From contig JAFGHI010000021.1 in the NCBI GenBank assembly GCA_016930235.1, positions 56,810-120,809 of the forward strand: 64,000 bases of DNA. Direction: 5' to 3'. Positions 1,345 through 60,232 of the stretch are shown piece by piece. A program made the position numbers and the translations under genes. The DNA comes from Candidatus Omnitrophota bacterium. Lineage in GTDB: Bacteria > Omnitrophota > Omnitrophia > Omnitrophales > Aquincolibacteriaceae. Below the pieces are notes generated by a model. The model saw only the letters and a list, made by a program, of their open reading frames with translations. It was not told where the DNA came from and did no database searches. The first letter of the stretch is position 1; each line of letters starts with the position of its first letter.

Positions 1345-1417
1345 AAAACAACAGAAGCGTAAAGAGGCATAGAAAAATAAATTTTGCGAGGAGATTTTTC
1401 TTGGCTTCCTTGCTTCT

Positions 1418-1669
1418 TTAGCTGCTCTGCCTTTTTTTAGGGACCGGATCGTATCCGCTCGTTCCCCACGGATGGCATCTTAAAATCCTTCTGAGGGCCA
1501 ACCAGTTTCCACCCAGAATACCGTGTTCTTGAATCGCCTCGATCATGTATTGAGAACACGTGGGCATATGGCGGCAAGAACCGGGGAAAAAAGGAGAAAT
1601 CAGCCTCTGATAAATTTTGATCATCAAGATGATCGGAAAAGCGATTAAGGCATGGATAAAAGATTTCAT
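1418..1669 (-). CDS. yidD: membrane protein insertion efficiency factor YidD
   Basis: An 83-aa protein carrying the YidD signature [14 protein letters not shown] and an N-terminal hydrophobic helix. Confidence 0.8.
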
Positions 1670-1701: not shown

Positions 1702-2103
1702 TTAGTGGTTTTTCTTATCCTTCTCTTCTTCTTCCTGGGCTTTAATACTTAAGCGGGCGTAAGGCATGACCTTCAGTCTTCCCTTAGGTATGGGAGTTCC
1801 GTATTTCTCGCAGATTCCGTAGGTCCCCTCTTCGATTTTCTTTAGAGCCGAATCGATATCATTAAGAAGGTTTTGTCCATTGGAAGCCATGTTGATTTGG
1901 AACTCGGTGTCGAAACTGTCCGTCGCCACATCGGCCATATGAAAGCTATACCCCGACAGATCTCCGGTAGACTCTTTCTGGCTCTTATTCAGCACATCCC
2001 CCTCGATATTTTCGATGCCTTTGATAATCTTCTCGCGCAAAATGAGGAGACGCTTCTTGAAATCTTCCAACTCTTCCTGAGTAAAATTGGGCTTGCGCGG
2101 CAT
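1702..2103 (-). CDS. DksA/TraR-family regulator with degenerate zinc finger (DksA2-like)
   Basis: A coiled-coil N-terminus ([16 protein letters not shown]) is followed by a DksA-like C-terminus, [15 protein letters not shown]...ARLSIKAQ. Only 1 of the 4 canonical CxxC..CxxC cysteines is retained. Confidence 0.55.
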
Positions 2104-2127
2104 GAGATAAGGCGAGTCTGTCCTTCC

Positions 2128-2280
2128 CTATTTCTTTTCCCGAAAGACGACATAGCGCTTAAGAATGGGATCGAACTTCTTTCTTTCAAGCCTTTCCGGA
2201 TTCTTCTTCTTATTCTTGCGCGTCGTATAGCTGTAGGAACTTTCGGTGCTCTTCAGCGTAATAATTTCGCTTGGTACCAT
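2128..2280 (-). CDS. rpmG: 50S ribosomal protein L33, C-minus (zinc-ribbon-less) form
   Basis: A 50-aa ORF missed by the ORF track because it is under 60 aa. It translates to MVPSEIITLKSTESSYSYTTRKNKKKNPERLERKKFDPILKRYVVFREKK, which matches L33 with all four Zn-ribbon Cys replaced. Confidence 0.75.
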   Translation of the reverse strand: MVPSEIITLKSTESSYSYTTRKNKKKNPERLERKKFDPILKRYVVFREKK

Positions 2281-2491
2281 CGTTTATCCTTCCCTTTTCG
2301 ATAAAATTAAAAACGGTGCAGAAGTATACTCTAATTTCATCCGTTTTTCATCCTTTTTCCTACTCAATACCTTTTTGCCCGCAATTTCCCATTGTCCTGC
2401 AATAAATTGAGCCATAATGCTAAAAATTGAACGGCCATGCATCATCTGCCAAGCCATCACCGCTCGATTATTCTTATGGGATCAACCCAAG

Positions 2492-2525
2492 AAAAAAGCG
2501 AGGCTAGCTATGCTCGCAGCCTCGC
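2492..2525 (-). terminator. intrinsic terminator downstream of the SOD gene
   Basis: The 8-bp GC stem gcgaggct/agcctcgc (2498-2505 and 2518-2525) is followed on the minus strand by TTTTTT. Confidence 0.6.
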
Positions 2526-2550
2526 TTTCTTGCTTGGAGCACTCAAAAAA

Positions 2551-3153
2551 TCAACTCTTCACGGCCTTGTTGACACCCTGAAGCTGGCTTTCAACAAACT
2601 CCCAGTTCACAAGATTCCAGAAGGTCTCAACATATTTTGGGCGGGCATTCCGGTAATCGATATAATAGGCATGTTCCCAGACATCACAGGTCAAAATAGG
2701 GGTCTGGTTTTGAGTGATCGGGTTCTCCGCGTTTTTCCCCTGGACAATCTGAACGCCTCCATCTTTCCCTTTTACTAACCAAGCCCACCCGGAGCCAAAA
2801 AGGTTGACCGCCGCTTCTGAGAATTTCGCTTTAAAACTTTCGAAGCTGCCGAACCCTTTCTTGATGGTCTCGGCTAAAGCGCCTTTGGGCTCTCCTCCCC
2901 CACGAGCGGACAAACAATTCCAATAAAAAGTGTGATTCCATACCTGCGCGGCATTATTAAAGACAGGCCCCGAAGAGGTCCGGATCAGGTCTTCCAGCGA
3001 TTTTCCCGCTTCCGGTTTCCCTTCGATAAGACTATTCAACTTCGTTACATAAGCGTTGTGATGTTTCCCGTAATGGTATTCCAAGGTCTCCTTCGAAATG
3101 CGTGGCGATAAAGCGTCCAATTCGTACGGTAGTTTTGGCAGTGTGAAACTCAT
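2551..3153 (-). CDS. Fe/Mn-family superoxide dismutase
   Basis: LPKLPYELDALSPRISKETLEYHYGKHH, the DVWEHAYYIDYRN metal-binding region and the 200-aa size all fit. Confidence 0.9.
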   Translation of the reverse strand: MSFTLPKLPYELDALSPRISKETLEYHYGKHHNAYVTKLNSLIEGKPEAGKSLEDLIRTSSGPVFNNAAQVWNHTFYWNCLSARGGGEPKGALAETIKKGFGSFESFKAKFSEAAVNLFGSGWAWLVKGKDGGVQIVQGKNAENPITQNQTPILTCDVWEHAYYIDYRNARPKYVETFWNLVNWEFVESQLQGVNKAVKS

Positions 3154-3267: not shown

Positions 3268-3609
3268 CTATAATATATTTTCTCCGGAACTGCCGTCAGG
3301 CAAGAGCATCAAAGGGGGGACCTCTCCGGATTCCATCACCTGAAAGCAATGGCATAGTAGACAGCCCTTCTGAGAGAGGCAAAATTTGTTCGCTGTCTCG
3401 ACAAAAATCTTAAAATCTTCTTTCTTTAATCGGTCATAGGTAGAACACTTATCAAAATACTTACAATTAGAACCTTTTTTATGGATGATCCGGTAAAAAG
3501 GACACTCTTTATACTTCTCACTCGAGCAATAATCAAACGTATCCTGCCGAAGTTGCCCGACCTGACTTTGACATTCGCGAGTGTAATCAACAAACAAAGG
3601 ACACGGCAT
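3268..3609 (-). CDS. cysteine-rich small protein (10 Cys in 113 aa), function unknown
   Basis: A clean ORF immediately upstream of the SOD gene with clustered Cys (for example CLLCHC). I recognise no family for it. Confidence 0.4.
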   Translation of the reverse strand: MPCPLFVDYTRECQSQVGQLRQDTFDYCSSEKYKECPFYRIIHKKGSNCKYFDKCSTYDRLKKEDFKIFVETANKFCLSQKGCLLCHCFQVMESGEVPPLMLLPDGSSGENIL

Positions 3610-12026: not shown

Positions 12027-15000
12027 TTAAGACGTTTTGACTTTTCGAAATCTGAAAAAGATATCCTTCTCAACACTGAAAACAGACGGGATAAGGACAA
12101 GGGTAATTAACGTCCCAAAGAGAAGCCCCCAGGTCAAGGCCAGCATCATCTCCGCCAACATCGCATCATAACCCGCAAAACCATAAGCCGTCGGCAAAAG
12201 GCCCGCAACCGTAGTTAAGGTCGTCAAGGTAACTGCGCGCAAGCGCGTCTTGGCAATATCCGCAATTTGCCGATGAGGATGGATATCTCCTTTTTCATTG
12301 TTATATTCTTTATCTAATTTCGTAAGCATAATAATAGAATCATTAATAACAACCCCTGATAATCCGAGAACGCCGATCGCAGCATAAAAACCAAACAACA
12401 CTTTCCCATGAAGCCAAAATGCAAAAACAACACCCACAATACCAAAAGGAATAGCCAGCATGATCATCAGAGGCTTCCAAATCGAATTAAAAAGAATGGC
12501 TAGGACGACATAAATCAGAAAAAGCACCATTGTGACAGCATGCCCGATATCACTTTTGGATTCCCGGGTATCTTGCACCTCGCCTCCAAAGGAAATTGTC
12601 GTCGTTGGATAATGAGCCAAAATTTCCGGGAAAATTTTTTTCTCGAGTTCTTCAGCCGCCTCTAACGGCGTCAAACGGCTTTTCTTATCCAGGCCGGCGT
12701 CAACAAGGGTGGTGCGTTTAAGGTCCTGACGGAAAATTGAATTGGGGGACTCGATCTCTTCAACCGAAACAACTTTCCCCAGCAATACCAGATAATCCCC
12801 CTGATTCTCAACCGGGATCGCGAGAATCTTATCCATACTGTCTTTGGCTTCATCAACCGTCGTCAAACGGACATCCATCTCTTCATCGCCCCTGGGAAAT
12901 TCATAAAGAATTGCGCCTTCGAGCGCTGCCCTCAACGTTGACCCCATATCGACGGGGCTAATCGACAAACGCTTGGCCATTTCCTGACTGATGCTGACCC
13001 GGAATTCGGGGATCCGAAACCCTTCATCCACCTCAATCTCCACAAAATCGGGGTGCGCTTCCATCTTCCCAATAATTTCCTGAACAACTTCATTGCGTAA
13101 AACATCATCATTCTGTTTAACTAAAATCTCGATCACTTTTCCGGTGTCTTGCCCCCATCGACTTTTACCGAAAGAAACCTTTCGAAATCCTTCCAGTTCC
13201 ATAATGGGTTTTTCAAGCTCCTTGATCAAACGGTCTGCCGACTTATTTCTCTTCTCTTTGGGGACAATTTCCATTGTGATCCGGAATTTATTTTCTTCGA
13301 TGGCTCCGCCTCTTCGGCTTCTGGCAATTTCAGTTCGATACCCGATCACTTCCTTGCCAACAAAAGGGTCTATTTTTTCTTCAATCTTCTTGACCATGCC
13401 AGCGGTATCATACCGCTTCGTCCCGGCCGCCACTTCCCCGGAGAGCACAATCTCCCTTGTTTCTTCATTCGGGAACATCACAAACTTCATCCGGGTTTGA
13501 ACGATAAAAATCGACAAGACCAACATGAAAAAGAAAGAGACGAAGATCACCTTTTTATACGGCAGGATTTTCTCGAGAAGACGCCCATATTTTTCCTCGT
13601 ACGAGTCAAACCAGTGTTGATACTTATGCCCGGTGCTTTTTTTGTTTCGGCTCCGCCATCTTTCAAAAAGAGGATGGTCAAAACTCATGTGCCCCGGCAA
13701 AATAAAAATAGACTCGAACAAACTAGCGCCCAGCACCAAGAAGATAATAGGCGGGATGTATTGGATAAACGCACTGAATCTTCCTTCGAAAAAATAAAGC
13801 GGCACGAAAGCAATACAGGTGGTCAAGATACTTGCAATAACGGGGAATAAAACATAGGAAGTCCCTTTCACAGCAGCTGTTAGGGCATCAACCCCCTGGC
13901 GAAGCATGCGCGTAATATTCTCGGCCACCACAATCGCGTCATCCACAATCATCCCCATCACGATGATCACCGCAGCCAAGGTTGTCCCATTAATCGTAAA
14001 TCCCATCCAAGAACCCGCGATCAGCGTAAAACACAAGGTAAATGGGATACCCAAAGCCACCCAAATACCTGATCGTTTATTGAGAAAAAGAAAAAGTGTA
14101 ATCAAAATGAGAATGAACCCGATCCCGCCATTGATCCCGATAATGGACAAACGGTTCCTAAGATCAATGGATTCATCATCAAGGAAAAGGACACGGATAG
14201 AAGTCCCAGCAAGCTGATTCTTCTCGTATCCCTTAACCACACGGGTGACTTCCTCAAGGGCGTCCAAGATCCCGGAAGAGCTATTTTTGACGACATTAAG
14301 CATCACCGCCTCATGACCGTTCACCTTGAGGACATTTTCATTTTTCTCAAACCCTTCTTCGATTTGAGCCAATTCCCCTAACCGGACCACACCCCCTTCA
14401 AAACCACCTTGGACAATCAGCTTCTGTAATTTCTCAACAGTGTTGAGTTCCGAGAGGAGCGTAACCTTGGGTTCCTCTCTGGTTTCAATGCTCCCCGCAG
14501 GCTTGCGGATATGATTATTTTTGATTTCCTGCATGACAGTATTGAAAGGAATCTCATATTCGATTAACTTTTCCGGTTTGACCTTGATTTGAATCTCGGG
14601 CTGCAGATATCCTCGGCGTGTCACACTATTGACTTCCGGGAGGTTTAAAAGCTGATCTTCCAACGTGAGGGCATACTTTTGAAGTTTCTGGCGGGATGGA
14701 ACATCCAATAAATGTGTTTCGGTATCGATTAGCGCAATATCCAGAATCGCCTTCTTGGATGTCTTGAAGACACGAATGTCGGGATCGTTAATGACCTCCT
14801 CGGGCAATTCGACATCGAAAACCTCGCTACGGATCTCGGTCAGAATTTCTTCAATACCATAATCCCCACGTTCCAATTCGACGTTGATCGAACTTAATCC
14901 TACACTTGAATGACTCGTAATGCGATAAACGCCGTCGATGCCGCGCAAAACTTCTTCGATAGGCTCCGTAACAAAATATTCAACATCTTCTGCTGTCGCA

Positions 15001-15161
15001 CCTGGATATTGCACCTGGATACGAACACGATCAAAAGTAATATCAGGAAGTTCTTCTTTCTTGGTATGATTCCAGGCGAGAATACCACCCATTAAAACGG
15101 CAATGACAATAGCATTCGTCAAAAAGTGCCGTTTCGCGAAATATGCAATTACTTTTTCCAT
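12027..15161 (-). CDS. RND efflux transporter permease (AcrB/HAE1-like), orphan
   Basis: A 1044-aa protein with 12 TM helices, two large periplasmic loops and the N-terminal ELPDITFDRVRIQVQYPGATAEDVE signature. There is no adjacent MFP or OMF gene. Confidence 0.85.
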   Translation of the reverse strand: MEKVIAYFAKRHFLTNAIVIAVLMGGILAWNHTKKEELPDITFDRVRIQVQYPGATAEDVEYFVTEPIEEVLRGIDGVYRITSHSSVGLSSINVELERGDYGIEEILTEIRSEVFDVELPEEVINDPDIRVFKTSKKAILDIALIDTETHLLDVPSRQKLQKYALTLEDQLLNLPEVNSVTRRGYLQPEIQIKVKPEKLIEYEIPFNTVMQEIKNNHIRKPAGSIETREEPKVTLLSELNTVEKLQKLIVQGGFEGGVVRLGELAQIEEGFEKNENVLKVNGHEAVMLNVVKNSSSGILDALEEVTRVVKGYEKNQLAGTSIRVLFLDDESIDLRNRLSIIGINGGIGFILILITLFLFLNKRSGIWVALGIPFTLCFTLIAGSWMGFTINGTTLAAVIIVMGMIVDDAIVVAENITRMLRQGVDALTAAVKGTSYVLFPVIASILTTCIAFVPLYFFEGRFSAFIQYIPPIIFLVLGASLFESIFILPGHMSFDHPLFERWRSRNKKSTGHKYQHWFDSYEEKYGRLLEKILPYKKVIFVSFFFMLVLSIFIVQTRMKFVMFPNEETREIVLSGEVAAGTKRYDTAGMVKKIEEKIDPFVGKEVIGYRTEIARSRRGGAIEENKFRITMEIVPKEKRNKSADRLIKELEKPIMELEGFRKVSFGKSRWGQDTGKVIEILVKQNDDVLRNEVVQEIIGKMEAHPDFVEIEVDEGFRIPEFRVSISQEMAKRLSISPVDMGSTLRAALEGAILYEFPRGDEEMDVRLTTVDEAKDSMDKILAIPVENQGDYLVLLGKVVSVEEIESPNSIFRQDLKRTTLVDAGLDKKSRLTPLEAAEELEKKIFPEILAHYPTTTISFGGEVQDTRESKSDIGHAVTMVLFLIYVVLAILFNSIWKPLMIMLAIPFGIVGVVFAFWLHGKVLFGFYAAIGVLGLSGVVINDSIIMLTKLDKEYNNEKGDIHPHRQIADIAKTRLRAVTLTTLTTVAGLLPTAYGFAGYDAMLAEMMLALTWGLLFGTLITLVLIPSVFSVEKDIFFRFRKVKTS

Positions 15162-29003: not shown

Positions 29004-30472
29004 ACGATCACTCCTCCGGCTACACGGCCTGCTTCCAAAAGCAGCTTCTGGAAGGGGCCCGGGATGTAAAAACCCATCACGAAGATCACGATCAAGCCGA
29101 TGTCGAGAACACTGTCCATCAAGAAACTTTTTTCTGATGCCGGAGACTCCTCCGAAGCGCCAAAAGTCATCCCATTGGCGTGCCTCAAAAAACCGATAAA
29201 GATAAGCGCTAGTAAAACGAGCAAGAAGACGCAAGGAATAAATTTCCCGGCCAGGAATCCTGCGCTTAAAATAAGGAATTCGCTGACAAAAATGCTGAAC
29301 GGCGGCATCCCGGCAATGGCCAAGACACCTAAGAAGAAAATGATGCCCAAAAACGGGTTTTCCAGGAAGATCCCTTTTATCTTACCGATCTCTTTGGTCT
29401 TAAAAAGATAAAGCAGATGCCCGCAACTAAAAAAAAGCATGGATTTTGTGAATGCGTGGTTCACGATGTGAAGGATCGCTGCGTAGGCCCCGAACGCGCC
29501 GCCAAAACCCAGTCCCACGGCCGCAAGTCCCATATGCTCGACACTGGAATAAGCCAGAAGACGTTTATAATCTTTTTGCTCCAGGATAAACGGCGTTGCA
29601 ACAGCAACAGAAAGAACTCCAAATAAAATGAGGAGCGTCCCTGAGAATGCGGATCCAGTCGCAGCTGTGGTCAGAATGTGGAACCTCAGTATTCCCAAAG
29701 TTGCACAGCTTAAAAGCACGCCGGAAAGAAGTGCACTCACGGGGGCTGGAGCCTGGCTGTGCGCATCCGGAAGCCAGGAATGGAACGGCGCGAGACCCGC
29801 TTTGGTTCCGTAACCCACCAGAATAAAAATAAAAGCAAGACGGATAATCTGTGGATCTAACTGTCCGGCCCTGCTCAAAAGGAAGGTCCAATTCAGTAAA
29901 AAAACGTTCTCTCCCGCGCTCACTTGAGCGATCGCCGAATAATAGACCAGGATGATCCCGAAAAGCGCGAGCGCAATCCCGACGCTGCAAAGAATCAGGT
30001 ATTTCCATGCGGCCTCGATCGAACTTTTCTTGTCATCTACGTTGACCAGGAACGCTGAAGCTAGCGTCGTTCCCTCGATCGCGATCCACATAATGCCAAG
30101 ATTATTGGAAAAAACGGTCAAAAGCATGGTGAAAAGGAAAAGATGGAAAAAGAAAGCATACCGTCGAAGCCTTAAAGAAGAGATGCTTGAATCTCCTTCT
30201 TTGAAAAGATATCCCCCCGCATAGACGGCCGAAAGCATTCCTACGCTCGTGATCAGAAGCACAAAGACCGCGGACAGCGAATCCATCATGAGATTCCCGC
30301 TAAAAGCGAACACACGGGGCGACCAGTAAACCCCAAAAACAAAGAGCCATGCTCCGATCGCGGAAAGCACGGCGCCGGTCGTGAACGTCAGTCGCGTCAT
30401 CCTCTTAGGGCAAGGGATCAAACAAAGAAACGCAAAAATAAGGGGCATCCAAAGGACCCTGTCGATCGTCAT
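29000..30472 (-). CDS. antiporter-like membrane subunit (NuoN/HyfF/MnhD family)
   Basis: A 490-aa protein with about 14 TM helices and the conserved blocks AWKYLIL and GLAPFHSWLPDAH. Confidence 0.75.
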   Translation of the reverse strand: MTIDRVLWMPLIFAFLCLIPCPKRMTRLTFTTGAVLSAIGAWLFVFGVYWSPRVFAFSGNLMMDSLSAVFVLLITSVGMLSAVYAGGYLFKEGDSSISSLRLRRYAFFFHLFLFTMLLTVFSNNLGIMWIAIEGTTLASAFLVNVDDKKSSIEAAWKYLILCSVGIALALFGIILVYYSAIAQVSAGENVFLLNWTFLLSRAGQLDPQIIRLAFIFILVGYGTKAGLAPFHSWLPDAHSQAPAPVSALLSGVLLSCATLGILRFHILTTAATGSAFSGTLLILFGVLSVAVATPFILEQKDYKRLLAYSSVEHMGLAAVGLGFGGAFGAYAAILHIVNHAFTKSMLFFSCGHLLYLFKTKEIGKIKGIFLENPFLGIIFFLGVLAIAGMPPFSIFVSEFLILSAGFLAGKFIPCVFLLVLLALIFIGFLRHANGMTFGASEESPASEKSFLMDSVLDIGLIVIFVMGFYIPGPFQKLLLEAGRVAGGVIV

Positions 30473-30476
30473 CGTA

Positions 30477-31136
30477 TTATCCTTTCAAAACGGTCATATC
30501 GTCCGCGTCGATACTTTCAAAAGCATCGCGGATCTTAAAAACAAAAATTCCCATAATCATCGCAGCGACCAACACGTCGAAAAAGATTCCCATCTCGACC
30601 AAAAGCGGCATGCCGAAGGTCATAGTGACAGCCATTAAAAAAAGACCGTTCTCAATTAGAAGCAGGCCGAGAACCTGACTGATCGCTTTTTTCCGGGTCG
30701 TCATCATTAACATGCCGAAAAAGACGGTCGAGACAGCAAGCGGAATGAACTCACTAAAGGCAACCGGTTTCAGGATCTTGCCATCTCCCGTGACATAAAA
30801 CGAAATAAACACAAGCAGAACAGCCAAAAGAAGTGAAAAGGGAATGTTGAAACAACTTTCGACCTCTTTGCGAATCCCGAGCCGCCGGATGATCCTAAAA
30901 AAAACTTGCGGGATCACGATCGTTTTCAGAATAAGCGTCAAAATCGCAGGGACCAACAGATGCTCGACATGGTTCGTGACCGCAATCACCGCAGTAATAA
31001 GCGCGAGTAGGAAAGAGTGCGTTGCGTAGGCACGGATACACGTCCCTATCCGGGAAGACGCGAGGATCCAGAAAGAAGCAATCAGAAGAACCATCCCAAA
31101 AAAATGAATCAGCGAAGCCGCGAGTTCCGGACTCAT
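30477..31136 (-). CDS. HyfE-like small membrane subunit (hydrogenase-4 component E family)
   Basis: A 219-aa protein with 6-7 TM helices. Its position and size match hyfE. Confidence 0.55.
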   Translation of the reverse strand: MSPELAASLIHFFGMVLLIASFWILASSRIGTCIRAYATHSFLLALITAVIAVTNHVEHLLVPAILTLILKTIVIPQVFFRIIRRLGIRKEVESCFNIPFSLLLAVLLVFISFYVTGDGKILKPVAFSEFIPLAVSTVFFGMLMMTTRKKAISQVLGLLLIENGLFLMAVTMTFGMPLLVEMGIFFDVLVAAMIMGIFVFKIRDAFESIDADDMTVLKG

Positions 31137-32083
31137 ACTCCCCTCCCGATCATCAGTTGCCCCAGAAGAGAAAGGATGGCCAGAACAAAAGCCACCGCCA
31201 GAAGGTCCGGGACCCTAAAAAGACGCAATTTCGCAGAATGGATCTCAATCCACCCGATAACAAACGCCAGAAAAAAGACTTTCGCGAGGTAAAGAACCAG
31301 CGACAATCCAAAAGCCAGCGGGTCCCACGAACCCGCAATCCCCCAGGGGAAAAAAAGATCCGACAAGAGTGTCAAAAATACCAGCTGTTTAATCTGATGG
31401 CTCCATTCAATCAGGGCCAGATACCGTCCGGAATATTCAAGGATCATGGCCTCGTGAACCATTGTCAGCTCCAGGTGTGTTGCCGGATTATCCACAGGGA
31501 TCCTTCCACTTTCCGCGATTGTTACGATCAGCAGTGCTCCGAAAGCAAGGCTCGTAAAAAAAAGCATCTGTGTGGGCGATCCGGAAGCGAAATATGAAAC
31601 AATCCCTTCCAGGGACAACGTGTGGGCGCAAAAACCCAAAGAGAAAAAAGCGAGCAGAAGCGCCGGCTCCGCAAGTGACGAAAGCGTCATCTCCCGACTT
31701 GAACCCATACCACCGAACGTAGTGCCAGTGTCCAATGCCGCAAGCGCTAAAAAGAAACGGCCCAAAGCCAGGAGGTAAACAAAGAGGATCACATCCCCCG
31801 TAAAACCAAAAAGAGAACGTATACCTAAAACCGGCAGCATCGAAGCCGCCGCAAAAGTTGACACAAAAAGGACGAAAGGCATGGCATGAAAGATCCAGGA
31901 CGCCGTTTCCGAGATTACCATGTTCTTCCGGAATAATTTCAGTAGATCCGAATAGACCTGGATCAAGCTCGGCCCCACGCGGTTCTGCGAAGCCGCTTTC
32001 ATTTTTTTGATGAACCAGCTAAGCGCAGGCGCCAAAATCGCCAGGAACAAAAGTTGGATAACGGACAAAAGGATCGCCAGCAT
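31133..32083 (-). CDS. NuoH/HyfC/HycD-like membrane subunit
   Basis: A 316-aa protein with 8 TM helices and the NuoH-like blocks RVGPSLIQVYSDLLKL and EYSGRYLALIEW. Confidence 0.7.
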   Translation of the reverse strand: MLAILLSVIQLLFLAILAPALSWFIKKMKAASQNRVGPSLIQVYSDLLKLFRKNMVISETASWIFHAMPFVLFVSTFAAASMLPVLGIRSLFGFTGDVILFVYLLALGRFFLALAALDTGTTFGGMGSSREMTLSSLAEPALLLAFFSLGFCAHTLSLEGIVSYFASGSPTQMLFFTSLAFGALLIVTIAESGRIPVDNPATHLELTMVHEAMILEYSGRYLALIEWSHQIKQLVFLTLLSDLFFPWGIAGSWDPLAFGLSLVLYLAKVFFLAFVIGWIEIHSAKLRLFRVPDLLAVAFVLAILSLLGQLMIGRGV

Positions 32084-34110
32084 CAGGAACGCCCTCCGAA
32101 GAAAAAAAGCAGAAGGATCAGCGTAATAAAAATATAGCTTAAATAAAGCTGGATGTGCCCTGTCTGAATCTGCTTGGCCTTCCGGGATAGAACAGCAACA
32201 AACTCTGACAAAGGTTTATAAACCCATTCATCCACGTGATGCGTAATCTTTGACTCAAAACGCTGTGCAGTCCTGAGCATTGCATGACCTTCATCTTCCA
32301 ACTCCACACGGCGGGTCGGTTGATAGAGAAATGAAAAGATCCGGCGTAAAGGCTTGGAATAACCTGTGGCTGTATACTGCATACGCGGTTCAAGTCCCGG
32401 CATCCCGCAATCCCAGCTGGGACAGATGCGGACAATCTTTTTTCCAAGCAACACCCGCAAAAAGATTACGGCCCCGACCAAAAATGCCGAAAGGATCAAA
32501 GCGATAAGAACCGGGGAAAACTGGCTTGACTCTGAGGGGGATATCAAAAAGGATTTCCGAACCATGGCTCCCATCGGAATATCCGTGCCGGATAAAGTTT
32601 TTGCCACTTTCCCAAGAATAGGCACAATCCATGGAGCCGCCAGGGCCAACCCAAAACAACTCGCGGCCAGGATCCCCATTCCAGCTTTCATGGATCCGCT
32701 CACTTCATGCGCGTGGGCGGCCTGCTCAGAACGGGGCTTCCCTAAAAAGCTGATGCCAAAAGCCTTCACAAAACAGGTGGCCGCCAAAGCACCCGCAAGC
32801 CCAAGAAGCGCGGCTAAAAGCGGTGAAAAAAAACGCAGGGCCGGGCTCGCACCTTCGCATCCCAGCAGAAGCACGATAAAAGTCAGCCATTCGCTCACAA
32901 ATCCATTGAGAGGGGGTAACGCCGAAATCGCAGCCGAACCGATGAAAAAACAAGCGGCCGTCCAGGGCATGTTCCGTATCAAGCCGCCCAAACGCTCGAT
33001 ATCTTTTATGTGGGTGCCAGAAAGAATGGAACCCGCGCCAAGAAAGAGCAGCCCTTTGAAAGTTGCGTGATTTATTACATGATAAAGGGCGGCAATCAGG
33101 GCGAAGGAAGCGTAGAAGGGCTTCTTCGCGGAAGAAAAAACAAGCGCCATTCCAACGCCCAGCAGAATGATCCCGATGTTTTCGATGCTGTGAAAAGCAA
33201 GAAGCCGTTTGAGATCATGTTCCATCAAGGCATAGAGAACACCGAGCAGCGTTGAAAAAATCGCAACCGCAAGCACCGCGGATCCCCACCACGCGGGTAT
33301 CGCGCCAAGAAAGTTAAAAAGGAACAGAAGCAACCCGTAGATCGCCGTTTTGATCATGACTCCTGACATGAGCGCCGAGACATGGCTTGATGCCTGCGGA
33401 TGAGCCTGGGGCAACCAGATGTGAAGCGGGATCACGCCGGCTTTGGTCCCAAATCCGATGAACGCCGCGAGAAAAATAACGTTTTTAAGAACAGGCGGCA
33501 GCGTAACCGCAGCTCCTCTGAATGCATCGAATGAAAAAGAGCCCGCATGGATGTAAAGAAGCAGGAATGCGGCGGTAATAAAAGCGGTCCCCACATGCGT
33601 CATGATCAGGTAAAGCCTCCCGGCAGACAGGGCTTCGGGTCTTTCATGTTCAAAGATCACGAGAAAATAGGACGTAAGAGACATGATCTCCCAAAAAAGG
33701 AGAAAATAGAAAGCATTTTGCACTGTGACCACGAACAGCATCGCAAGAATGAAAAAATTATAGAAGAACCCCAGAAGCGCTATGCTCTTCCTCCCCTGAA
33801 ATTCCCGGGTATAACCGATGGCGAACAGAGAAGCAGCCAATGAAAGAAAAGAAATAATAAGAAGAAAGAAGGCTGAAAAGGGTCCCGCCACGAAGCGTAA
33901 AGCGCCTACCGGGAAACTCCCCTGCAATTCCAGGACCCAGGATCCTCCCGTGAAAAGGATGCCAAGCGAAAAGAGGATGCCCAACGCGCTCGCCAGAACA
34001 GCCAAGCCATGCGTCACGCGGTTCGCTTTTTCTCCGTGTTGTTCAAAAAGAAAACCCGCGATCCCTCCCAATATATGCAGCAACACCTGAACAAAAAATA
34101 ATAATTCCAT
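32083..34110 (-). CDS. NuoL/HyfB/MnhA-like antiporter-like membrane subunit
   Basis: A 675-aa protein with about 16 TM helices and the blocks GVIPLHIWLPQAHP and HATFKGLLF. It is the first gene of the operon. Confidence 0.75.
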   Translation of the reverse strand: MELLFFVQVLLHILGGIAGFLFEQHGEKANRVTHGLAVLASALGILFSLGILFTGGSWVLELQGSFPVGALRFVAGPFSAFFLLIISFLSLAASLFAIGYTREFQGRKSIALLGFFYNFFILAMLFVVTVQNAFYFLLFWEIMSLTSYFLVIFEHERPEALSAGRLYLIMTHVGTAFITAAFLLLYIHAGSFSFDAFRGAAVTLPPVLKNVIFLAAFIGFGTKAGVIPLHIWLPQAHPQASSHVSALMSGVMIKTAIYGLLLFLFNFLGAIPAWWGSAVLAVAIFSTLLGVLYALMEHDLKRLLAFHSIENIGIILLGVGMALVFSSAKKPFYASFALIAALYHVINHATFKGLLFLGAGSILSGTHIKDIERLGGLIRNMPWTAACFFIGSAAISALPPLNGFVSEWLTFIVLLLGCEGASPALRFFSPLLAALLGLAGALAATCFVKAFGISFLGKPRSEQAAHAHEVSGSMKAGMGILAASCFGLALAAPWIVPILGKVAKTLSGTDIPMGAMVRKSFLISPSESSQFSPVLIALILSAFLVGAVIFLRVLLGKKIVRICPSWDCGMPGLEPRMQYTATGYSKPLRRIFSFLYQPTRRVELEDEGHAMLRTAQRFESKITHHVDEWVYKPLSEFVAVLSRKAKQIQTGHIQLYLSYIFITLILLLFFFGGRS

Positions 34111-34416: not shown

Positions 34417-34489
34417 CTCCCCCGCCTGGGCTCGAACCAGGGACAAAGCGGTTAACAGCCGCTTGCTCTACCAACTGAGCTACAGGGGA
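34417..34489 (-). tRNA. tRNA-Asn (anticodon GUU)
   Basis: The minus strand reads TCCCCTGTAGCTCAGTTGGTAGAGCAAGCGGCTGTTAACCGCTTTGTCCCTGGTTCGAGCCCAGGCGGGGGAG. It folds as a cloverleaf with a 7-bp acceptor stem, a CTGTTAA anticodon loop and a TTCGAGC T-loop. The 3' CCA is not encoded. Confidence 0.85.
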
Positions 34490-53697: not shown

Positions 53698-56600
53698 TTA
53701 TGTTGATAAATTTTTTCTGTCAACTCCAATCGATTCACGAACTCTTAAGACCCATCCCCGATTTTTCGCAAAGTCTTTGGCTCTCCCTGTCAATTCTTCA
53801 GAAATTAAAATAAAATGAGGGAGAATGAAAAGCGTTAAAAACGTAGAACTTAAAAGTCCGCCGATCACAGTGATCGCAAGCGGTGACCATAAATCGCTGG
53901 ATTGTCCCCATTTTAAGGCCATCGGCAAAAAACCAAAAACCGTCGAAAATGTCGTCATCAAAATCGGTCGCAACCGGTCACATCCCGCATGGACTAGAAT
54001 TTCCCGTTCTGTCGCGCCCTCCGTTTTTAAATGATTCATACGGTCTACCAAAATAATAGCAGCGTTAACAACATACCCCGCAAGCAAAATCATGCCGATA
54101 AAAACCTGCTGGCTCAAGGGGGTTTTAGTAATGACCAAGGCAACCCAAATCCCGACGCCGGCCATCGGGACCGAAATCATCACAAGCAAAGGCTGAATAT
54201 AACTTTGGAAAAGACAGGCCAGTACCATATAAACGAGGAAAATCGTAAGAATAAGTGCCAGAGTAAGTTCTGACTTCCCCTTCATCAACTCTTCGTAAGC
54301 CCCTCCAAAACGCCAATAATAATCATCCGGCATTTCTACTCCGGTAAGAGATTCTTTGACTTCGCGAGCTATCGCTTCAAGCGGCCTCTTTGTATCCCCC
54401 TTCACAAAGACGTAACGATATTTATCTTTCCGATCGATTGTTTGCGGTCCTACAGACGGATAAAAATTGGCAATCTCCCCTAATGGGATTTGAGTCCCCG
54501 ATTTAGTGGCAATGTGAATAAGCTTCAAATCCTCGATCTTTTGCCGGTAAATCGCCTGAAGACGGGTAATCGTCTCAATTTCCTCTCCCTTTGATAATTC
54601 ATGAAACTTTGTCGGGCGCATTCCTCTCACTTGAGCATGCATCGAATCGGCAACGTCACTAACCGTCAAGCCATAGAGAGCTGCACGCCCTTTATCGACA
54701 ACCAAAGAATATTCAGGCCTTTTCCTGAGGTCTGTCATCACTAAATTGATCAAACCCGGAACCTTGGACATACGATTAGCAAACTCAAGCGCAAGCTTTT
54801 CCAACACATCATTTTCATGACCGAAAATATTAACAATCAATTTCTTTTGTTCGCTTGAACTTGCCCCTTCATCAACAATTAAACTGTAATCATCGTGTAT
54901 TTCTTTGATGGCTTCATTGCCTTTCTCATCCACAATCTGCATAATTTCATCTTTGGAGAATTGACGTTCTTTGCTCGGTTTTAAACGGACGAAAATCTTG
55001 ACATCATCTTTCCGCACCGTTGAAGAAAACATCTCAACGTCCGAAATTTTTGAAAGAATATTTTCCAATCTTTTCACAGCGTCATCATTCGTATCCAGCT
55101 TTGCACCTGCCAACGGGAACACAACTATCGCAAATTCATTTTCTTGAAGGGTCGTCGGCCAATCCATATCCCTTTTCTTTAACATTCCTATGGAACCTAA
55201 GGTAATCATCGCAATTAAACCCATGGCGATCGAACGTTGAAGTAAACTCCGGCTCAAGGTCCATGCAATAACATAACGGTAGACACCAGGAACTAAGAGA
55301 AAACCAAAAACGGAAAAAACGATCCCAAAAGCAATGAAAGTCAAAATAGAGCCCCAGAAAACACCTTTCATCAACACCCCTTGCCAGAAAGAGATAAGGA
55401 GAATAAAAATAAATGCGCCGGCCGCGATCCGAAAAAGTCTTCGGTGCTTGCCCGGAAAATAATCCCTTAACCAAATCAATCTGCTCCGCCACCAATCGCC
55501 CAAGGAAGTCGGTTTGATTTCGATCTTGCCTTGAGCCCAACTGGTTAAAAGCATAGGCACGAGCATCTGAGCAACAAAAAATGATGCGATCAGAGAAGCG
55601 CAAACAGTAAACGCAAAACCCGCATAAACAATTTGGATTTTCTTGTCGATGAAAACAACGGGCAAGAAAACAATCAGCGTCGTAATGAGCGAGGCCAATA
55701 AAGGCAACCATACTTCTTCAGCCCCCTGACGGATTGCAATGATATCATTAGCTCCATGCTCCTTTTTGGTAAAAACATTTTCCAATATCACAACAGTACT
55801 GTCGACAAGGATTCCCACTGCTAATGCCAATCCGCTCAAAGTCATCACGTTAATGCTGATCCCCATAAACTTCATAAAGAAAAAGGTGCAAACAACAGAT
55901 GCGGGGATAGAAATCAAAACAATAAGAGCAAGAACCATTTGCCTCAAAAATAAATAAATAATCGCAATGGCAAGAAACATCCCAATAAAAAGTGCCGTTC
56001 GAACATCATGGATAGCGCGGGAAATCATCTCCGCCTTGTCTGAAACAACAATAATGTCCAGGGCATCCTTGTATTCTTTCTCAAAATCATCTAAGACCTG
56101 GCGGGTCATCTTAATCACCGGAATGGTATTCGATAAACTTGTCTTCTTAATGTAGACCGTAACATTTTGCTCGAGATTCAAACGGGCATAATCGGCAGGT
56201 TCGAGATATGAATCCTTGATCACCGCTATTTCTTTTAGCGGGATAATAGACCCCTGTCTCGTTGCATGAACACCTAGCTCCCCAACCTCTTCAACACTTT
56301 CAAAAGCACCCATGCTACGGACAGCAATCTCGAACTTCCCCCGGTCGAAACTCCCCGCCAGAAGATTGATATTGCTTTGCCCAAGGATATCCATCACCTT
56401 CCCAATGGGAATGTTATAAGCCACCATCTTGTCCCGATCTAATTCAACCAGGATTTTCCTCTCCCGGCCGCCGTAAACTTCAACGCTCGCAACCCCATCC
56501 ACTCGTGCAAGAACCGGTTTTAATTCTGTCTCTACTAAATCCCGAACCTCTTCAGGAGACAAACTCTCCGAGGTCAACGCAAAAACAAAAACAGCGGCTT

Positions 56601-57006
56601 GCGCATCGTCATAATTAGCTATCACCGGTTTTTCGATTTCTCGCGGCAAGAGTGGCCGCACACGAGCAAACTTTTCACGAACTTCAAGAGCTGCAAATTT
56701 CATGTTGGTTCCCGGCTCAAATTCCATAGTGACTCGGGATTCTGCTTCGCGGGAATTGGAGTAAAGGTTCTTAAGATGTGAGACTGTCGCTGTGACTTCT
56801 TCGACCAAGCGGGTAATTCTTTTTTCAACCTCTAACGGGGGAAGACCTCCTCGAGCACGGATAATGATGCTGATAATCCCGGTATTCTGCCCTTGGTAAA
56901 GCTCAACAGGAAGGCGTGAAAGGGATATAAGCCCCATGATAATAAGGCCCAGAAAAACCATCGCGGTTAAAACAGGCCTTCGAATGGAAAAAGATGGCAA
57001 TCCCAT
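53698..57006 (-). CDS. RND efflux transporter permease (second of a tandem pair, MdtC-like position)
   Basis: About 1100 aa with 12 TM helices. The start at MGLPSFSIRRPV lies 1 nt after the upstream RND stop. Confidence 0.85.
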   Translation of the reverse strand: MGLPSFSIRRPVLTAMVFLGLIIMGLISLSRLPVELYQGQNTGIISIIIRARGGLPPLEVEKRITRLVEEVTATVSHLKNLYSNSREAESRVTMEFEPGTNMKFAALEVREKFARVRPLLPREIEKPVIANYDDAQAAVFVFALTSESLSPEEVRDLVETELKPVLARVDGVASVEVYGGRERKILVELDRDKMVAYNIPIGKVMDILGQSNINLLAGSFDRGKFEIAVRSMGAFESVEEVGELGVHATRQGSIIPLKEIAVIKDSYLEPADYARLNLEQNVTVYIKKTSLSNTIPVIKMTRQVLDDFEKEYKDALDIIVVSDKAEMISRAIHDVRTALFIGMFLAIAIIYLFLRQMVLALIVLISIPASVVCTFFFMKFMGISINVMTLSGLALAVGILVDSTVVILENVFTKKEHGANDIIAIRQGAEEVWLPLLASLITTLIVFLPVVFIDKKIQIVYAGFAFTVCASLIASFFVAQMLVPMLLTSWAQGKIEIKPTSLGDWWRSRLIWLRDYFPGKHRRLFRIAAGAFIFILLISFWQGVLMKGVFWGSILTFIAFGIVFSVFGFLLVPGVYRYVIAWTLSRSLLQRSIAMGLIAMITLGSIGMLKKRDMDWPTTLQENEFAIVVFPLAGAKLDTNDDAVKRLENILSKISDVEMFSSTVRKDDVKIFVRLKPSKERQFSKDEIMQIVDEKGNEAIKEIHDDYSLIVDEGASSSEQKKLIVNIFGHENDVLEKLALEFANRMSKVPGLINLVMTDLRKRPEYSLVVDKGRAALYGLTVSDVADSMHAQVRGMRPTKFHELSKGEEIETITRLQAIYRQKIEDLKLIHIATKSGTQIPLGEIANFYPSVGPQTIDRKDKYRYVFVKGDTKRPLEAIAREVKESLTGVEMPDDYYWRFGGAYEELMKGKSELTLALILTIFLVYMVLACLFQSYIQPLLVMISVPMAGVGIWVALVITKTPLSQQVFIGMILLAGYVVNAAIILVDRMNHLKTEGATEREILVHAGCDRLRPILMTTFSTVFGFLPMALKWGQSSDLWSPLAITVIGGLLSSTFLTLFILPHFILISEELTGRAKDFAKNRGWVLRVRESIGVDRKNLST

Positions 57007-57007
57007 C

Positions 57008-60000: not shown

Positions 60001-60229
60001 ATCCCGAAACCGATCCTACGGATTCTTCAATGGGTTTTGTGATCAGCTGTTCGATTTCTTCGGGTGCGGCATTAACGTAATCAGTGACAACTGTGACCTG
60101 AGGAAAAGTAATGGGAGGAAAGAGTTCCTGAGGCAATCGGGTAAAGGAAATAAACCCAACGACGATCAATCCCAAAGTGACCATCACCACAGTCACTTTT
60201 TTGCGTATTGCGTATTCGGGTAACGTCAT
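57008..60229 (-). CDS. RND efflux transporter permease (first of a tandem pair, MdtB-like position)
   Basis: A 1073-aa protein with the N-terminal LPQELFPPITFPQVTVVTDYVNAAPEEIEQLITKPIEE signature and 12 TM helices. Confidence 0.85.
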   Translation of the reverse strand: MTLPEYAIRKKVTVVMVTLGLIVVGFISFTRLPQELFPPITFPQVTVVTDYVNAAPEEIEQLITKPIEESVGSVSGLKRIESVSREGRSTIVVSFNWGQDIDFAALAVREKIDLIKERLPKEAEDPVILKFDPLARPIMILSVTGKDLEPIRLKLLSEKMLKDNLEKVEGVASATISGGVDREILVEIDQGRLMANHLSLLDVIDSIDESNISYPAGSIKKGLYEYLIRTVGEFRSVKEIGYAVVGADVVEELRRQDTSFVEKGGQRGPRATIDGERADLAEQLLEKRLVLTRDIANIIDGFAEKTSISRFNGKENLSISIQKQAGANTIEVVDRLKKELEFLKEDVESRGLRYDIIYDHSTFIRQSLRNLFNEALAGGFLAFIILFLFLRSTYASLLVTVSIPITIMGVFFMMGVSGITLNIMSLGGLALAVGMIVDTSIVVLENIYRRHQLGDGVEQGAIYGAQEVMWAVIASNLTTIAVFFPLILFVPGILGQITKDLSLTVIFALVIAIIIPLTLVVMLSTYLKMQAKHYRPIPWAGILERNFLQGASRAKQNRFIWMVFLAVIGLCAIIFVIYPTLDREVLPKVDQGQFLVKVDMPIGTRLEITNGICKKIEDYLHTLKDVQDVATTIGSEKTSRGEVKIETLRPSQALILVSLKKDRKKSSSEIVQSIWGHVKDLDLEKATVDFIVQESEFQEFAKAGATKPIVVEVKGYDFDTMSDLVDRIEKKLASISGVMNIQDNIGEPSPETKLEIDKRRAALYGISALDISLTAKAAIDGVVATEYREGGKEIDVRVRLSEKDRENLDNINDLLLYSQVLDAFIPIKEVAQVQRGLGPSEIRRMDQERTVIVEADILKSKKTKDVLANVQDILKTIDVPQDFQVVLSGKAREIKESFAMVTFAFALSIMLVYMIMASLFESFVQPLIIMITVPLAFFGVAIALWLTGTSLNIISFIGIIVLGGVVVNNGIVLIEYINQLREEGMELAEATVQAAKIRTRPILMSALTTVVALIPLAMGFGEGAELRRPLAITVMGGLLSATFLTLIVVPCLYIFVVRLTERILGSDDEEEMV

Positions 60230-60232
60230 GCA

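Follow-up and report, generated by a model that had tools for sequence, protein, structure and literature searches.

Control by Zur of C-minus (C-) paralogs of the ribosomal proteins L31 and L33 and of the DksA paralog DksA2 has been established in other organisms (PMC8000910, PMC9213440, PMC4010833). In Pseudomonas aeruginosa, DksA2 (PA5536) is a two-cysteine, Zur-regulated paralog beside the four-cysteine DksA1 (PMC9213440, PMC4010833, PMC8000910), and in mycobacteria a C- L33 is one of several Zur-regulated alternative ribosomal proteins encoded in one operon (PMC5912738). C-minus bL33 is classed by the absence of the metal-binding pattern CxxC...Cxx[C/D/E] (PMC10450194). Chlamydia trachomatis encodes only one DksA, the C1-type CT407, which lies in the context nrdR-dksA-lspA and fails to complement E. 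coli dksA (PMC9126822), and the DksA of Rhodobacter sphaeroides (RSP2654) is a functional housekeeping factor (PMC4010833). In the published C4/C2/C1 classification of DksA, the first cysteine is always retained. As Makarova et al. are said to have reported in 2001, the C-minus bL33 of E. coli is its sole housekeeping copy.

The window analysed here is a stretch of 64,000 nucleotides (64 kb) from a Candidatus Omnitrophota bacterium, in which a gene for bL33 is followed on the same strand by a dksA-like gene (gap of 24 nt) and by yidD (gap of 32 nt) (Table 1). The neighbouring genes in the window include, apart from yidD, sodB, gpmA, lgt and a metallophosphoesterase gene. In profile searches, the product of rpmG exceeded the curated cut-offs for bL33 over its full length (PF00471, E=1.2e-15 and 58.1 bits, cut-off 25; TIGR01023, 55.4 bits, cut-off 23.95; NF001860, 63.8 bits, cut-off 50), and a Shine-Dalgarno-like sequence, GGAAGGA, is located 6 nt upstream of its ATG. 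This gene had been taken as unannotated in the original prediction; however, its product is 100% identical to MBN1688041.1, which carries the rpmG annotation in GenBank. The dksA-like product is 100% identical to MBN1688040.1.

Table 1. Features in and around the rpmG-dksA-yidD gene group (positions are those of the window)
Feature	Position	Strand	Details and basis
rpmG, bL33 of the C-minus form	2128..2280	minus	50 aa, MVPSEIITLKSTESSYSYTTRKNKKKNPERLERKKFDPILKRYVVFREKK
dksA-like gene, one-cysteine (C1) zinc-independent type by sequence pattern	1702..2103	minus	133 aa; PF01258 above cut-off
yidD (membrane protein insertion efficiency factor)	1418..1669	minus	PF01809, E=1.6e-30; TIGR00278
Promoter-like site upstream of rpmG, ATGAAA-17-TATACT	2323..2351	minus	consensus scan, 9/12 matches
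Inverted repeat across the putative promoter	2306..2351		ATTAAAAACGG / CCGTTTTTCAT, 24-nt spacer
Intrinsic terminator of sodB	2492..2531	minus	GCGAGGCU...AGCCUCGC then UUUUUUCUU; inverted repeat and fold
Possible terminator hairpin then U-run after yidD	1347..1425	minus	in the gap where yidD and the metallophosphoesterase gene converge

All four zinc-ribbon cysteines of L33 are indeed replaced, as had been predicted: the protein contains no cysteine at all, the ligand positions being occupied by S11, S14, D37 and L40 in the alignment with C+ relatives, and with the CxxC...Cxx[C/D/E] pattern absent it belongs to the C-minus isoform. The bL33 of E. coli likewise has no zinc ligands and bears a C-terminal motif KFDP(V/I)(V/L)(R/K) in place of CxxC, as does the window protein (E ~5e-10); it is among the nearest solved L33 chains. 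The top-scoring solved chain is a mycobacterial alternative C- L33 (9E16, 6DZI; E=1.6e-11), from which the zinc ribbon is also absent. In E. coli and in proteobacterial metagenome loci rpmG lies in rpmB-rpmG, whereas the rpmG of the window is beside neither rpmB nor secE-nusG.

The relatives of this L33 form a graded series with four cysteines (P0133), one cysteine (P0130-132) or no ligand cysteine (P0121-129). Eight relatives are without any of the four ligand cysteines, two of them having one stray cysteine outside the ligand positions. The one-cysteine form occupies the canonical site, in the order tuf-rpmG-tRNA-Trp-secE-nusG-rplK (L096-L098). The zero-cysteine clade, in the loci examined, was located at neither classical rpmG position (tuf-secE-nusG or rpmB-rpmG). 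In a related MAG, whose zero-cysteine L33 (MFZ5802636.1) and NusG (MFZ5802332.1) were both assembled from run SRR32167788, the canonical site reads tuf-tRNA-Trp-secE-nusG, without any L33-like sequence in 20.5 kb. A weak L33-like tblastn match in L174 (7813-7890, E=0.007) was judged to be due to chance, as it falls in an AT-rich, stop-rich stretch between two tRNAs. For the MAG of the window, NusG is MBN1688918.1, and its retrieved contig begins inside tRNA-Trp, with the tuf side outside view.

The gene downstream of rpmG encodes, as had also been predicted, a DksA/TraR protein that keeps one of four finger cysteines. Membership in the superfamily is indicated by the PF01258 match (E=5.5e-9, 36.3 bits, cut-off 24.9) together with a predicted coiled coil followed by a C-terminal globular domain. 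The finger reads C98-E-K-Y101-(17 residues)-S119-I-K-A122, i.e., C98-x2-Y101-x17-S119-x2-A122, and C98 is the sole cysteine of the protein. The spacing, the first cysteine, the serine and the alanine all fit the zinc-independent C1/C2 pattern of DksA; ligand position 2, however, is tyrosine, neither serine nor threonine, and thus outside the published CxxS/T pattern, as in 87 of 120 relatives. Scores against the NCBIfam DksA models were below the cut-offs (TIGR02420, 59.8 vs. 115.5 bits; NF033459, 70.6 vs. 105 bits). The best-scoring NCBIfam model was that of the Bacillus YteA family (TIGR02890), whose HxAD-type tip region is also present in the window protein, but the score of 102.3 bits is below the cut-off of 134.4 bits and the protein therefore falls outside this family by the criterion of NCBI.

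Functional DksA is recognised by a DxxDxA tip, of which D74 and A76 of E. coli are critical residues. In the window protein, the coiled-coil tip H55-M-A-D58-V-A60 could be aligned without gaps to DEADLA of DksA2. The first aspartate is replaced, giving HxxDxA, and the tip is of low confidence in the AF2 model; across 40 homologs, A57, D58 and A60 were invariant and H55 nearly so. The AF2 model consists of helices 9-46 and 55-92 followed by the globular domain, and in Foldseek it matched 4IJJ, 1TJL and 6PTG at a probability of 1.00, with TM ~0.7 for 4IJJ and 1TJL. The best Foldseek match was P. aeruginosa DksA2 (4IJJ, TM 0.72), which has a zinc-independent fold, shares alanine at ligand position 4 with the window protein and was the next PDB sequence match (E=3.8e-10) after 6PTG, the C. 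trachomatis C1-DksA (E=1.1e-22 over residues 7-128). This closest solved relative was crystallised with no metal; like the window protein, it retains the first finger cysteine only (C-D-V-S...T-V-K-S vs. C-E-K-Y...S-I-K-A) and has a GYSxHxADxxTDxFD tip region. The DksA of R. sphaeroides, as in the window, keeps the first of four cysteines with alanine at position 4; however, its identity to E. coli DksA is 42% and it has the full DxxDxA motif, whereas the match between the window protein and the E. coli factor is weak (E=5e-4). We infer a DksA-like activity for the window protein with some caution, because it scores below the DksA and YteA cut-offs and its chlamydial relative failed in the E. 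coli complementation.

Among the best 120 cluster representatives related to the window DksA, 72 were of the one-cysteine, 24 of the two-cysteine and 22 of the four-cysteine type, the finger positions being CYSA (66), CYCA (21), CTSA (6), CTCA (3), CCCC (22), CCCH (1) and SSTE (1). Four-cysteine Omnitrophota forms showed 53-59% identity to the window protein, about level with many one-cysteine forms. In an NJ tree constructed with the finger columns masked, ligand positions 2 and 4 changed about two times, and position 3 flipped between cysteine and serine at least nine times, a pattern that resembles drift inside one orthologous group. The locus ileS-dksA-lspA-lgt-rluD is common to one-cysteine and four-cysteine Omnitrophota DksA, and since both occupy it they are regarded as orthologs. 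In these relatives ileS lies upstream, lspA between dksA and lgt, and rluD downstream; the distance from dksA to the downstream lgt is 0.6-1.2 kb in 21 genome loci, whether one-cysteine or four-cysteine. The dksA-lspA linkage is shared with Chlamydia; dksA follows nrdR there and rpmG in the window. In the closest relatives dksA and lgt are directly adjacent; the window still has lgt at a distance of 1 kb, though in inverted orientation. In Omnitrophota, the primary ortholog appears to be the one-cysteine DksA, and the same holds for several relatives from Planctomycetota, Verrucomicrobiota, Fibrobacterota and Chlamydiota. The DksA of the window is probably not a DksA2 in the strict sense, because one-cysteine DksA of its type shares the primary dksA context with four-cysteine forms. 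As the same states recur in relatives, the cysteine-free L33 and the cysteine-depleted DksA are not sequencing noise.

The adjacency of rpmG and dksA was confined to this genome: about 170 related loci (80 genome, 80 metagenome and 11 further loci) were compared, and not one shows it. Specifically, no L33 gene adjoined dksA in the 80 DksA genome loci, no dksA occurred within 3 kb of the L33 gene in the 80 L33 metagenome loci, and the two were not adjacent in the 11 further contigs of the closest relatives. A 138-aa gene after rpmG in L089 was examined as possible DksA and found to be something else. In one WOR-3 locus, a C+ L33 lies 2.4 kb from dksA.

The original prediction had offered two readings of this pair, i.e., a zinc-starvation module of paralogs co-regulated by Zur, or a lineage without zinc in both proteins. 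The shared dksA locus, the L33 data from the canonical site and the unconserved adjacency favour the second reading over the first: the adjacency is a one-off, the one-cysteine DksA holds the primary ortholog locus, and cysteine loss is graded among the relatives of both proteins. We consider it likely that L33 and DksA are housekeeping copies of an Omnitrophota lineage with decayed Cys4 sites, which came to adjoin each other by local rearrangement. In both bL33 and the DksA-family factor, the Cys4 structural zinc site would have decayed over evolution. L33 would fold and join the 50S subunit zinc-free, like its E. coli counterpart, which is C-minus and constitutive, and the DksA-like protein would retain its coiled-coil and globular fold zinc-free, like Pseudomonas DksA2 and the one-cysteine chlamydial DksA, with its tip, including the conserved D58 and A60, presumably entering the secondary channel of RNA polymerase. 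A rearrangement specific to this genome may have joined the gpmA/sodB/rpmG neighbourhood to that of dksA/lgt, both rpmG and dksA presumably being single-copy genes, and the group rpmG-dksA-yidD would probably be expressed constitutively, with transcription starting after the sodB terminator at a sigma-70-like promoter.

Under the module reading, the genome would also encode Cys4 forms of L33 and DksA, and a metal sensor, Zur or a different one, would keep rpmG-dksA, possibly with yidD, silent until zinc runs short; the products would then replace the Cys4 forms and free zinc. Such an arrangement has the precedents cited above, the nearest solved L33 chain is the mycobacterial alternative form, the two genes lie close together behind their own promoter region with an inverted repeat, and the position of the zero-cysteine L33 clade away from the canonical rpmG sites would also fit a relocated extra copy. 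However, we regard this reading as very unlikely. In addition to the isolated adjacency and the primary dksA locus, the related MAG with a zero-cysteine L33 has no rpmG at tuf-secE-nusG. Among the best 120 DksA matches, only P0001 was located on this contig or carried an accession of the MBN168 series, every other NCBI-named or accessioned cluster belonging to different assemblies. The tblastn searches used approximate query sequences for L33 (C+ and C-), E. coli DksA, further zinc-ribbon ribosomal proteins, Zur, Fur and ZnuA, and detected in the 64 kb no second copy of L33 or DksA, no Zur, Fur or ZnuA and no other C- ribosomal protein gene; nor did the adjoining 7.5 kb, outside the window at its start, contain a second L33. 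These two stretches are the part covered of a genome that probably measures 1-3 Mb. The window dksA differs from P. aeruginosa DksA2 in its primary-ortholog synteny and in that neither a Zur box above chance upstream of rpmG nor, in the 64 kb, a four-cysteine partner was found, and the window differs from the mycobacterial operon in having no further C- ribosomal protein gene. Pfam scans of most larger ORFs of the window revealed no zinc homeostasis genes, and the clustering typical of zinc regulons (znuABC, COG0523, other C- ribosomal proteins) was not seen there.

The original prediction had proposed a search for a Zur box; upstream of rpmG, six Zur/Fur box consensuses, from which a lineage-specific operator of Omnitrophota may differ, gave best matches with 5-11 mismatches, i.e., at chance level. 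No Rfam match to an RNA leader was obtained upstream of rpmG even at E<=1. The inverted repeat across the putative promoter was considered as an operator and rejected: when the intergenic region was shuffled 2000 times, a perfect 8-nt inverted repeat within 40 nt appeared in 156 cases (8%), the repeat itself occurs a single time in the window, and relatives do not share it in front of their rpmG, so it is probably due to chance. A loss of zinc fingers across the proteome was likewise dismissed. The IleRS of L007, a one-cysteine-DksA locus, had no zinc-finger Pfam match, yet its CxxC...CxxC is intact, and cysteine makes up 1.0% of the other ORFs of the window, with a 10-cysteine ORF only 1 kb away.

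The three genes are probably transcribed together with yidD as the last gene, as suggested by the 24-nt and 32-nt gaps without an intervening terminator; no terminator-like site was found between them on the minus strand. The promoter-like site is weak on its own, because four sites were found in the region vs. 2.1 expected, but by eye its -10 region, GAGTATACT, resembles those upstream of rpmG in relatives (L089, L093, L094). The hairpin after yidD is also weak (-19.6 kcal/mol, z=-1.8; 13/200 shuffles as stable). The terminator of sodB is predicted to fold with -33.4 kcal/mol (z=-4.8; 0/200 shuffles as stable) and, since it intervenes, sets sodB apart from the rpmG transcription unit.

A single transcript of this kind could tie the synthesis of an RNA polymerase regulator to that of a ribosomal protein and thereby to growth rate, the cysteine loss then being incidental. 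In E. coli, the promoters of rRNA and ribosomal protein genes are under DksA control (PMC4010833). In one relative dksA is flanked by hisI and a Trm112p-like gene, and in another these two genes flank rpmG; the common flanks hint that rpmG and dksA shared a neighbourhood earlier. A linkage under selection should recur, however, yet it is absent from the approximately 170 related loci, which makes such coupling quite unlikely.

The thiol-switch threshold of DksA is set by its zinc and cysteine content. The cysteine loss in DksA could therefore have been selected for insensitivity to oxidants and not for zinc economy, with sodB, immediately upstream of rpmG, as an oxidative-stress context, and the same idea has been raised for the C1-DksA of Chlamydia (PMC9126822). 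This explanation appears very unlikely: the strong terminator separates sodB from rpmG, in relatives (L088) sodB is linked to rpmG and not to dksA, the parallel cysteine loss in L33 would be left unexplained, and the flips at position 3 among close relatives look like relaxed constraint and not selection.

Based on the preferred reading of decayed housekeeping copies, a cysteine-free L33 or a cysteine-depleted DksA should not by itself be taken as a sign of zinc-starvation paralogs. Otherwise the results are mainly of value for annotation, with a modest comparative value in the graded series of cysteine loss in both L33 and DksA. It is also conceivable, though rather doubtful, that a subclade of Omnitrophota is dismantling the Cys4 sites of small housekeeping proteins stepwise, as a lineage-wide adaptation of which the intermediates are still living. 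The intermediates that could be cited are L33 with four, one and zero cysteines, of which the one-cysteine form is at the tuf-nusG site, and DksA with four, two, one and zero cysteines and a previously unreported tyrosine at position 2. If true, such a process could reflect zinc economy, or thermostabilising metal sites that are not needed in cold groundwater and lake habitats, and the clade would be a natural series for studying the replacement of zinc ribbons. The tyrosine in place of cysteine at ligand position 2, together with the one homolog without any finger cysteine, slightly extends the published C4/C2/C1 classification of DksA.

The original prediction placed a cysteine-free L33 beside a cysteine-depleted DksA, and this was confirmed. 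No cysteine is present in the rpmG product, whose ligand positions are S11, S14, D37 and L40 in the alignment with ribbon-retaining relatives, and C98 is the sole cysteine of the DksA-like protein, with the finger C98-x2-Y101-x17-S119-x2-A122. The description of rpmG as unannotated was wrong, because both proteins are 100% identical to Candidatus Omnitrophota MAG entries in GenBank (MBN1688040.1 and MBN1688041.1). The DksA-like protein scored 36.3 bits against Pfam DksA/TraR (cut-off 24.9) and stayed under the NCBIfam equivalog cut-offs of both DksA and YteA. At 0.43 and 0.46, the GC contents of the pair are like that of the window (0.46), and therefore recent import is not indicated. Between gpmA and sodB, an ORF without Pfam or NCBIfam match encodes 10 cysteines, which contradicts a general cysteine avoidance by the organism. 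Two other ORFs look spurious, one over the rpmG promoter region (a gene call in the annotation of one public assembly, L081) and one antisense to dksA and rpmG.

Coordinates of features in the window
Feature	Position	Strand	Remark
yidD	1418-1669	minus	
dksA-like gene	1702-2103	minus	133 aa; passes Pfam DksA/TraR model
ORF antisense to dksA and rpmG	1873-2304	plus	143 aa
rpmG	2128-2280	minus	50 aa; far above all curated L33 cut-offs
ORF over rpmG promoter region	2284-2460	minus	58 aa
C-CGTTTT element	2296-2322	minus	
Inverted repeat	2306-2316 / 2341-2351		
Weak sigma-70-like site	2351-2323		ATGAAA-17-TATACT; upstream of rpmG
sodB terminator	2492-2531		strong hairpin then U-run; -33.4 kcal/mol, z=-4.8
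sodB	2551-3153	minus	
ORF with 10 cysteines	3268-3609	minus	113 aa
AcrB-type RND transporter	12027-15161	minus	
Ech/Hyf-like cluster	26505-34110	minus	six genes
tRNA	34417-34489		
AcrB-type RND transporters	53698-63245	minus	

The pair had been interpreted as a zinc-starvation module under Zur or, failing that, as a lineage trait. In the 64 kb of the window and the related loci examined, the module was not supported, and cysteine loss in both proteins is best read as a probable lineage trait. Matches of six Zur/Fur consensus boxes to the rpmG upstream region were at chance level, although an Omnitrophota operator may differ from these consensus sequences, and the proposed Zur box was not recovered. 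No Fur/Zur, ZnuA or second L33 or DksA copy was found by tblastn in the 64 kb, and Pfam scans of most larger window ORFs revealed no zinc homeostasis genes; their content was metabolism, efflux pumps, a group-4-hydrogenase/complex-I-like module, Mla, FtsK and a nusA-infB-pnp cluster.

The rpmG ATG is preceded by a Shine-Dalgarno-like GGAAGGA, and the -10 region of its putative promoter resembles those 5' of rpmG in relatives. Gaps of 24 nt (rpmG-dksA) and 32 nt (dksA-yidD), no terminator-like sites between the three genes on the minus strand, and a weak hairpin 3' of yidD suggest a single rpmG-dksA-yidD transcript; metallophosphoesterase and lgt genes converge on them from the plus strand. The inverted repeat over the promoter is expected in 8% of shuffles and occurs once in the window, and its left arm is not conserved in relatives. 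The C-CGTTTT element, about 6-8 nt past the putative -10, recurs in the rpmG leaders of two relatives (L089 and L094) and may be a conserved leader feature; Rfam had no match for it or the leader.

Adjacency of the two genes did not recur. None of 80 DksA genome loci had an L33 gene adjoining dksA, a WOR-3 genome having L33 of the ribbon-bearing (C+) form 2.4 kb from dksA, and none of 80 L33 metagenome loci, retrieved with the L33 alignment, had a DksA-like gene within 3 kb. It was also absent from the examined contigs of the closest relatives, where rpmG is loosely near gpmA, sodB, hisI and trm112, and dksA near lgt, lspA and hisI. At the window junction two neighbourhoods are joined. The surroundings of rpmG and of dksA are both fluid in gene order. 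An upstream hisI and a downstream Trm112p-like gene flank dksA in one relative (L082 5471-7329) and rpmG in another (L088 4482-5428), and the two genes may once have shared a neighbourhood.

For DksA, the mixture of cysteine classes within one synteny favours the lineage trait. In the top 120 cluster representatives, nearly all of them labelled Omnitrophota or without taxon label, the finger positions were CYSA (66), CYCA (21), CTSA (6), CTCA (3), CCCC (22), CCCH (1) and SSTE (1), so that the window's own pattern, CYSA, is the most frequent in the clade. Four-Cys forms showed 53-59% identity to the window DksA, and many one-Cys forms were no closer. On the neighbour-joining tree, with the four finger columns masked, positions 2 and 4 changed about twice, and position 3 alternated between Cys and Ser nine or more times, which looks like relaxed constraint after metal-site loss within one orthologous group. 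Synteny agrees with this reading: the context ileS-dksA-lspA-lgt-rluD is common to four-Cys (L003, L004, L006, L021) and one-Cys loci (L001, L007, L086), and in 21 species-representative genomes dksA is followed by lgt at a distance of 0.6-1.2 kb. In the relatives closest to the window DksA (L085, L087), dksA and lgt abut directly; the window lgt lies 1 kb away in inverted orientation. One-Cys DksA also occurs in Planctomycetota, Verrucomicrobiota, Fibrobacterota and one Simkaniaceae genome.

A homolog from ENA (P0095, 198 aa) lacks Cys throughout the finger, its four positions reading S, S, T and E, in conflict with the published claim of an always-conserved first cysteine; it is a single sequence on a 689-bp contig. 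Many Omnitrophota homologs (P0013, P0045, P0066, P0095 and others; columns 1-85 of the homolog alignment A1) carry Lys/Ser/Ala-rich N-terminal extensions of 30-70 residues, reminiscent of Streptomyces DdbA, in which a DksA-like domain bears a histone-H1-like tail (PMC3643593); the window DksA has no such extension.

DksA proteins fall into classes C4, C2 and C1, with the zinc-free motif CxxS/T-x17-C/S/TxxA, and Chlamydia species have one C1 ortholog only, with a metal-free crystal; its gene is co-transcribed with lspA, and the protein does not complement E. coli dksA (PMC9126822). The one-Cys DksA of R. sphaeroides is the functional housekeeping DksA, and Pseudomonas DksA2 is a Zur-regulated paralog (PMC4010833). 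The closest solved relative of the window DksA was C. trachomatis DksA (6PTG, E=1.1e-22), followed by P. aeruginosa DksA2 (4IJJ) and E. coli DksA. In the AlphaFold model (40 homologs, mean pLDDT 76), helices 9-46 and 55-92 form a coiled coil whose tip is of low confidence, and the C-terminal globular domain is modelled confidently; the best structural matches were DksA2, E. coli DksA and chlamydial DksA. The tip H55-M-A-D58-V-A60 aligned without gaps to D-E-A-D-L-A of DksA2, although with His in place of the first Asp, and none of the 40 homologs varied at A57, D58 or A60; residues equivalent to the critical D74 and A76 thus appear to be retained, and the protein is a putative zinc-free DksA-type secondary-channel factor.

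For L33, close relatives were graded from four Cys (P0133, STCDC...CPGC) through one (P0130-132, KKYCPVLRK) to no ligand Cys (P0121-129). Among the 80 metagenome loci, C+ rpmG adjoined tuf/nusG/rplK in 39 of 41 cases, and the 27 proteobacterial-type rpmG genes without ribbon cysteines (C-) adjoined rpmB, the arrangement also known from E. coli. The three one-Cys Omnitrophota-type genes (L096 3001-3156, L097, L098) stand in tRNA-Thr-tuf-rpmG-tRNA-Trp-secE-nusG-rplK; the ribbon was therefore lost from the primary copy in a related lineage, and the one-Cys form is an intermediate of this decay. The zero-Cys 'KSTES' clade, which includes the window, was at neither classical position.

A further rpmG copy at the classical site of such genomes was sought via NusG, the same-MAG protein being picked by GenBank accession proximity. 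For a relative with zero-Cys L33 (MFZ5802636.1), NusG was MFZ5802332.1, both assembled from run SRR32167788, and no L33-like sequence was found in 20.5 kb of its tRNA-Thr-tuf-tRNA-Trp-secE-nusG-rplK-rplA-rplJ-rplL-rpoB-rpoC locus. This related MAG (GCA_049324575.1) thus has tuf-tRNA-Trp-secE-nusG without intervening rpmG (L174 8301-10534); its zero-Cys rpmG is found on a separate contig, flanked by hisI and a Trm112p-like gene (L088). The contig with the NusG of the window MAG (MBN1688918.1) starts inside tRNA-Trp. The nearest solved L33 chains were an alternative C- L33 from mycobacteria and the C- L33 that E. coli makes constitutively, and thus sequence by itself is indecisive on paralog status. 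Species with C- isoforms alone have been counted, and heat-adapted bacteria are reported as the only ones in which the metal sites are kept without exception (PMC10450194). The pair adds one C- bL33 and one C1-type DksA to kinds already known; minor variations are Tyr at ligand position 2 and the zero-Cys P0095.

Many metagenomic L33 genes (L135, L138, L140-L143, L160 and others) had the pattern CTEC...CPRE, a CCCE-type putative metal site (PMC10450194), and all those with visible flanks adjoined tuf/nusG. Where one JGI contig stops, part of the rpmG 3' end is repeated in inverted orientation (L091 5669-5719), probably an assembly artefact.

Elsewhere in the window, six clustered genes look like an energy-converting hydrogenase of Ech/Hyf type or a complex-I-like module, with a 20-kDa subunit bearing a ferredoxin domain, a fused 30/49-kDa NiFe-like subunit, two antiporter-like subunits, a NuoH-like subunit and one ORF without family match; a tRNA lies just past it. 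The window also has three AcrB-type RND transporters, for which no connection to metals emerged; two of them stand side by side, accompanied by a membrane-fusion protein and an outer-membrane factor.
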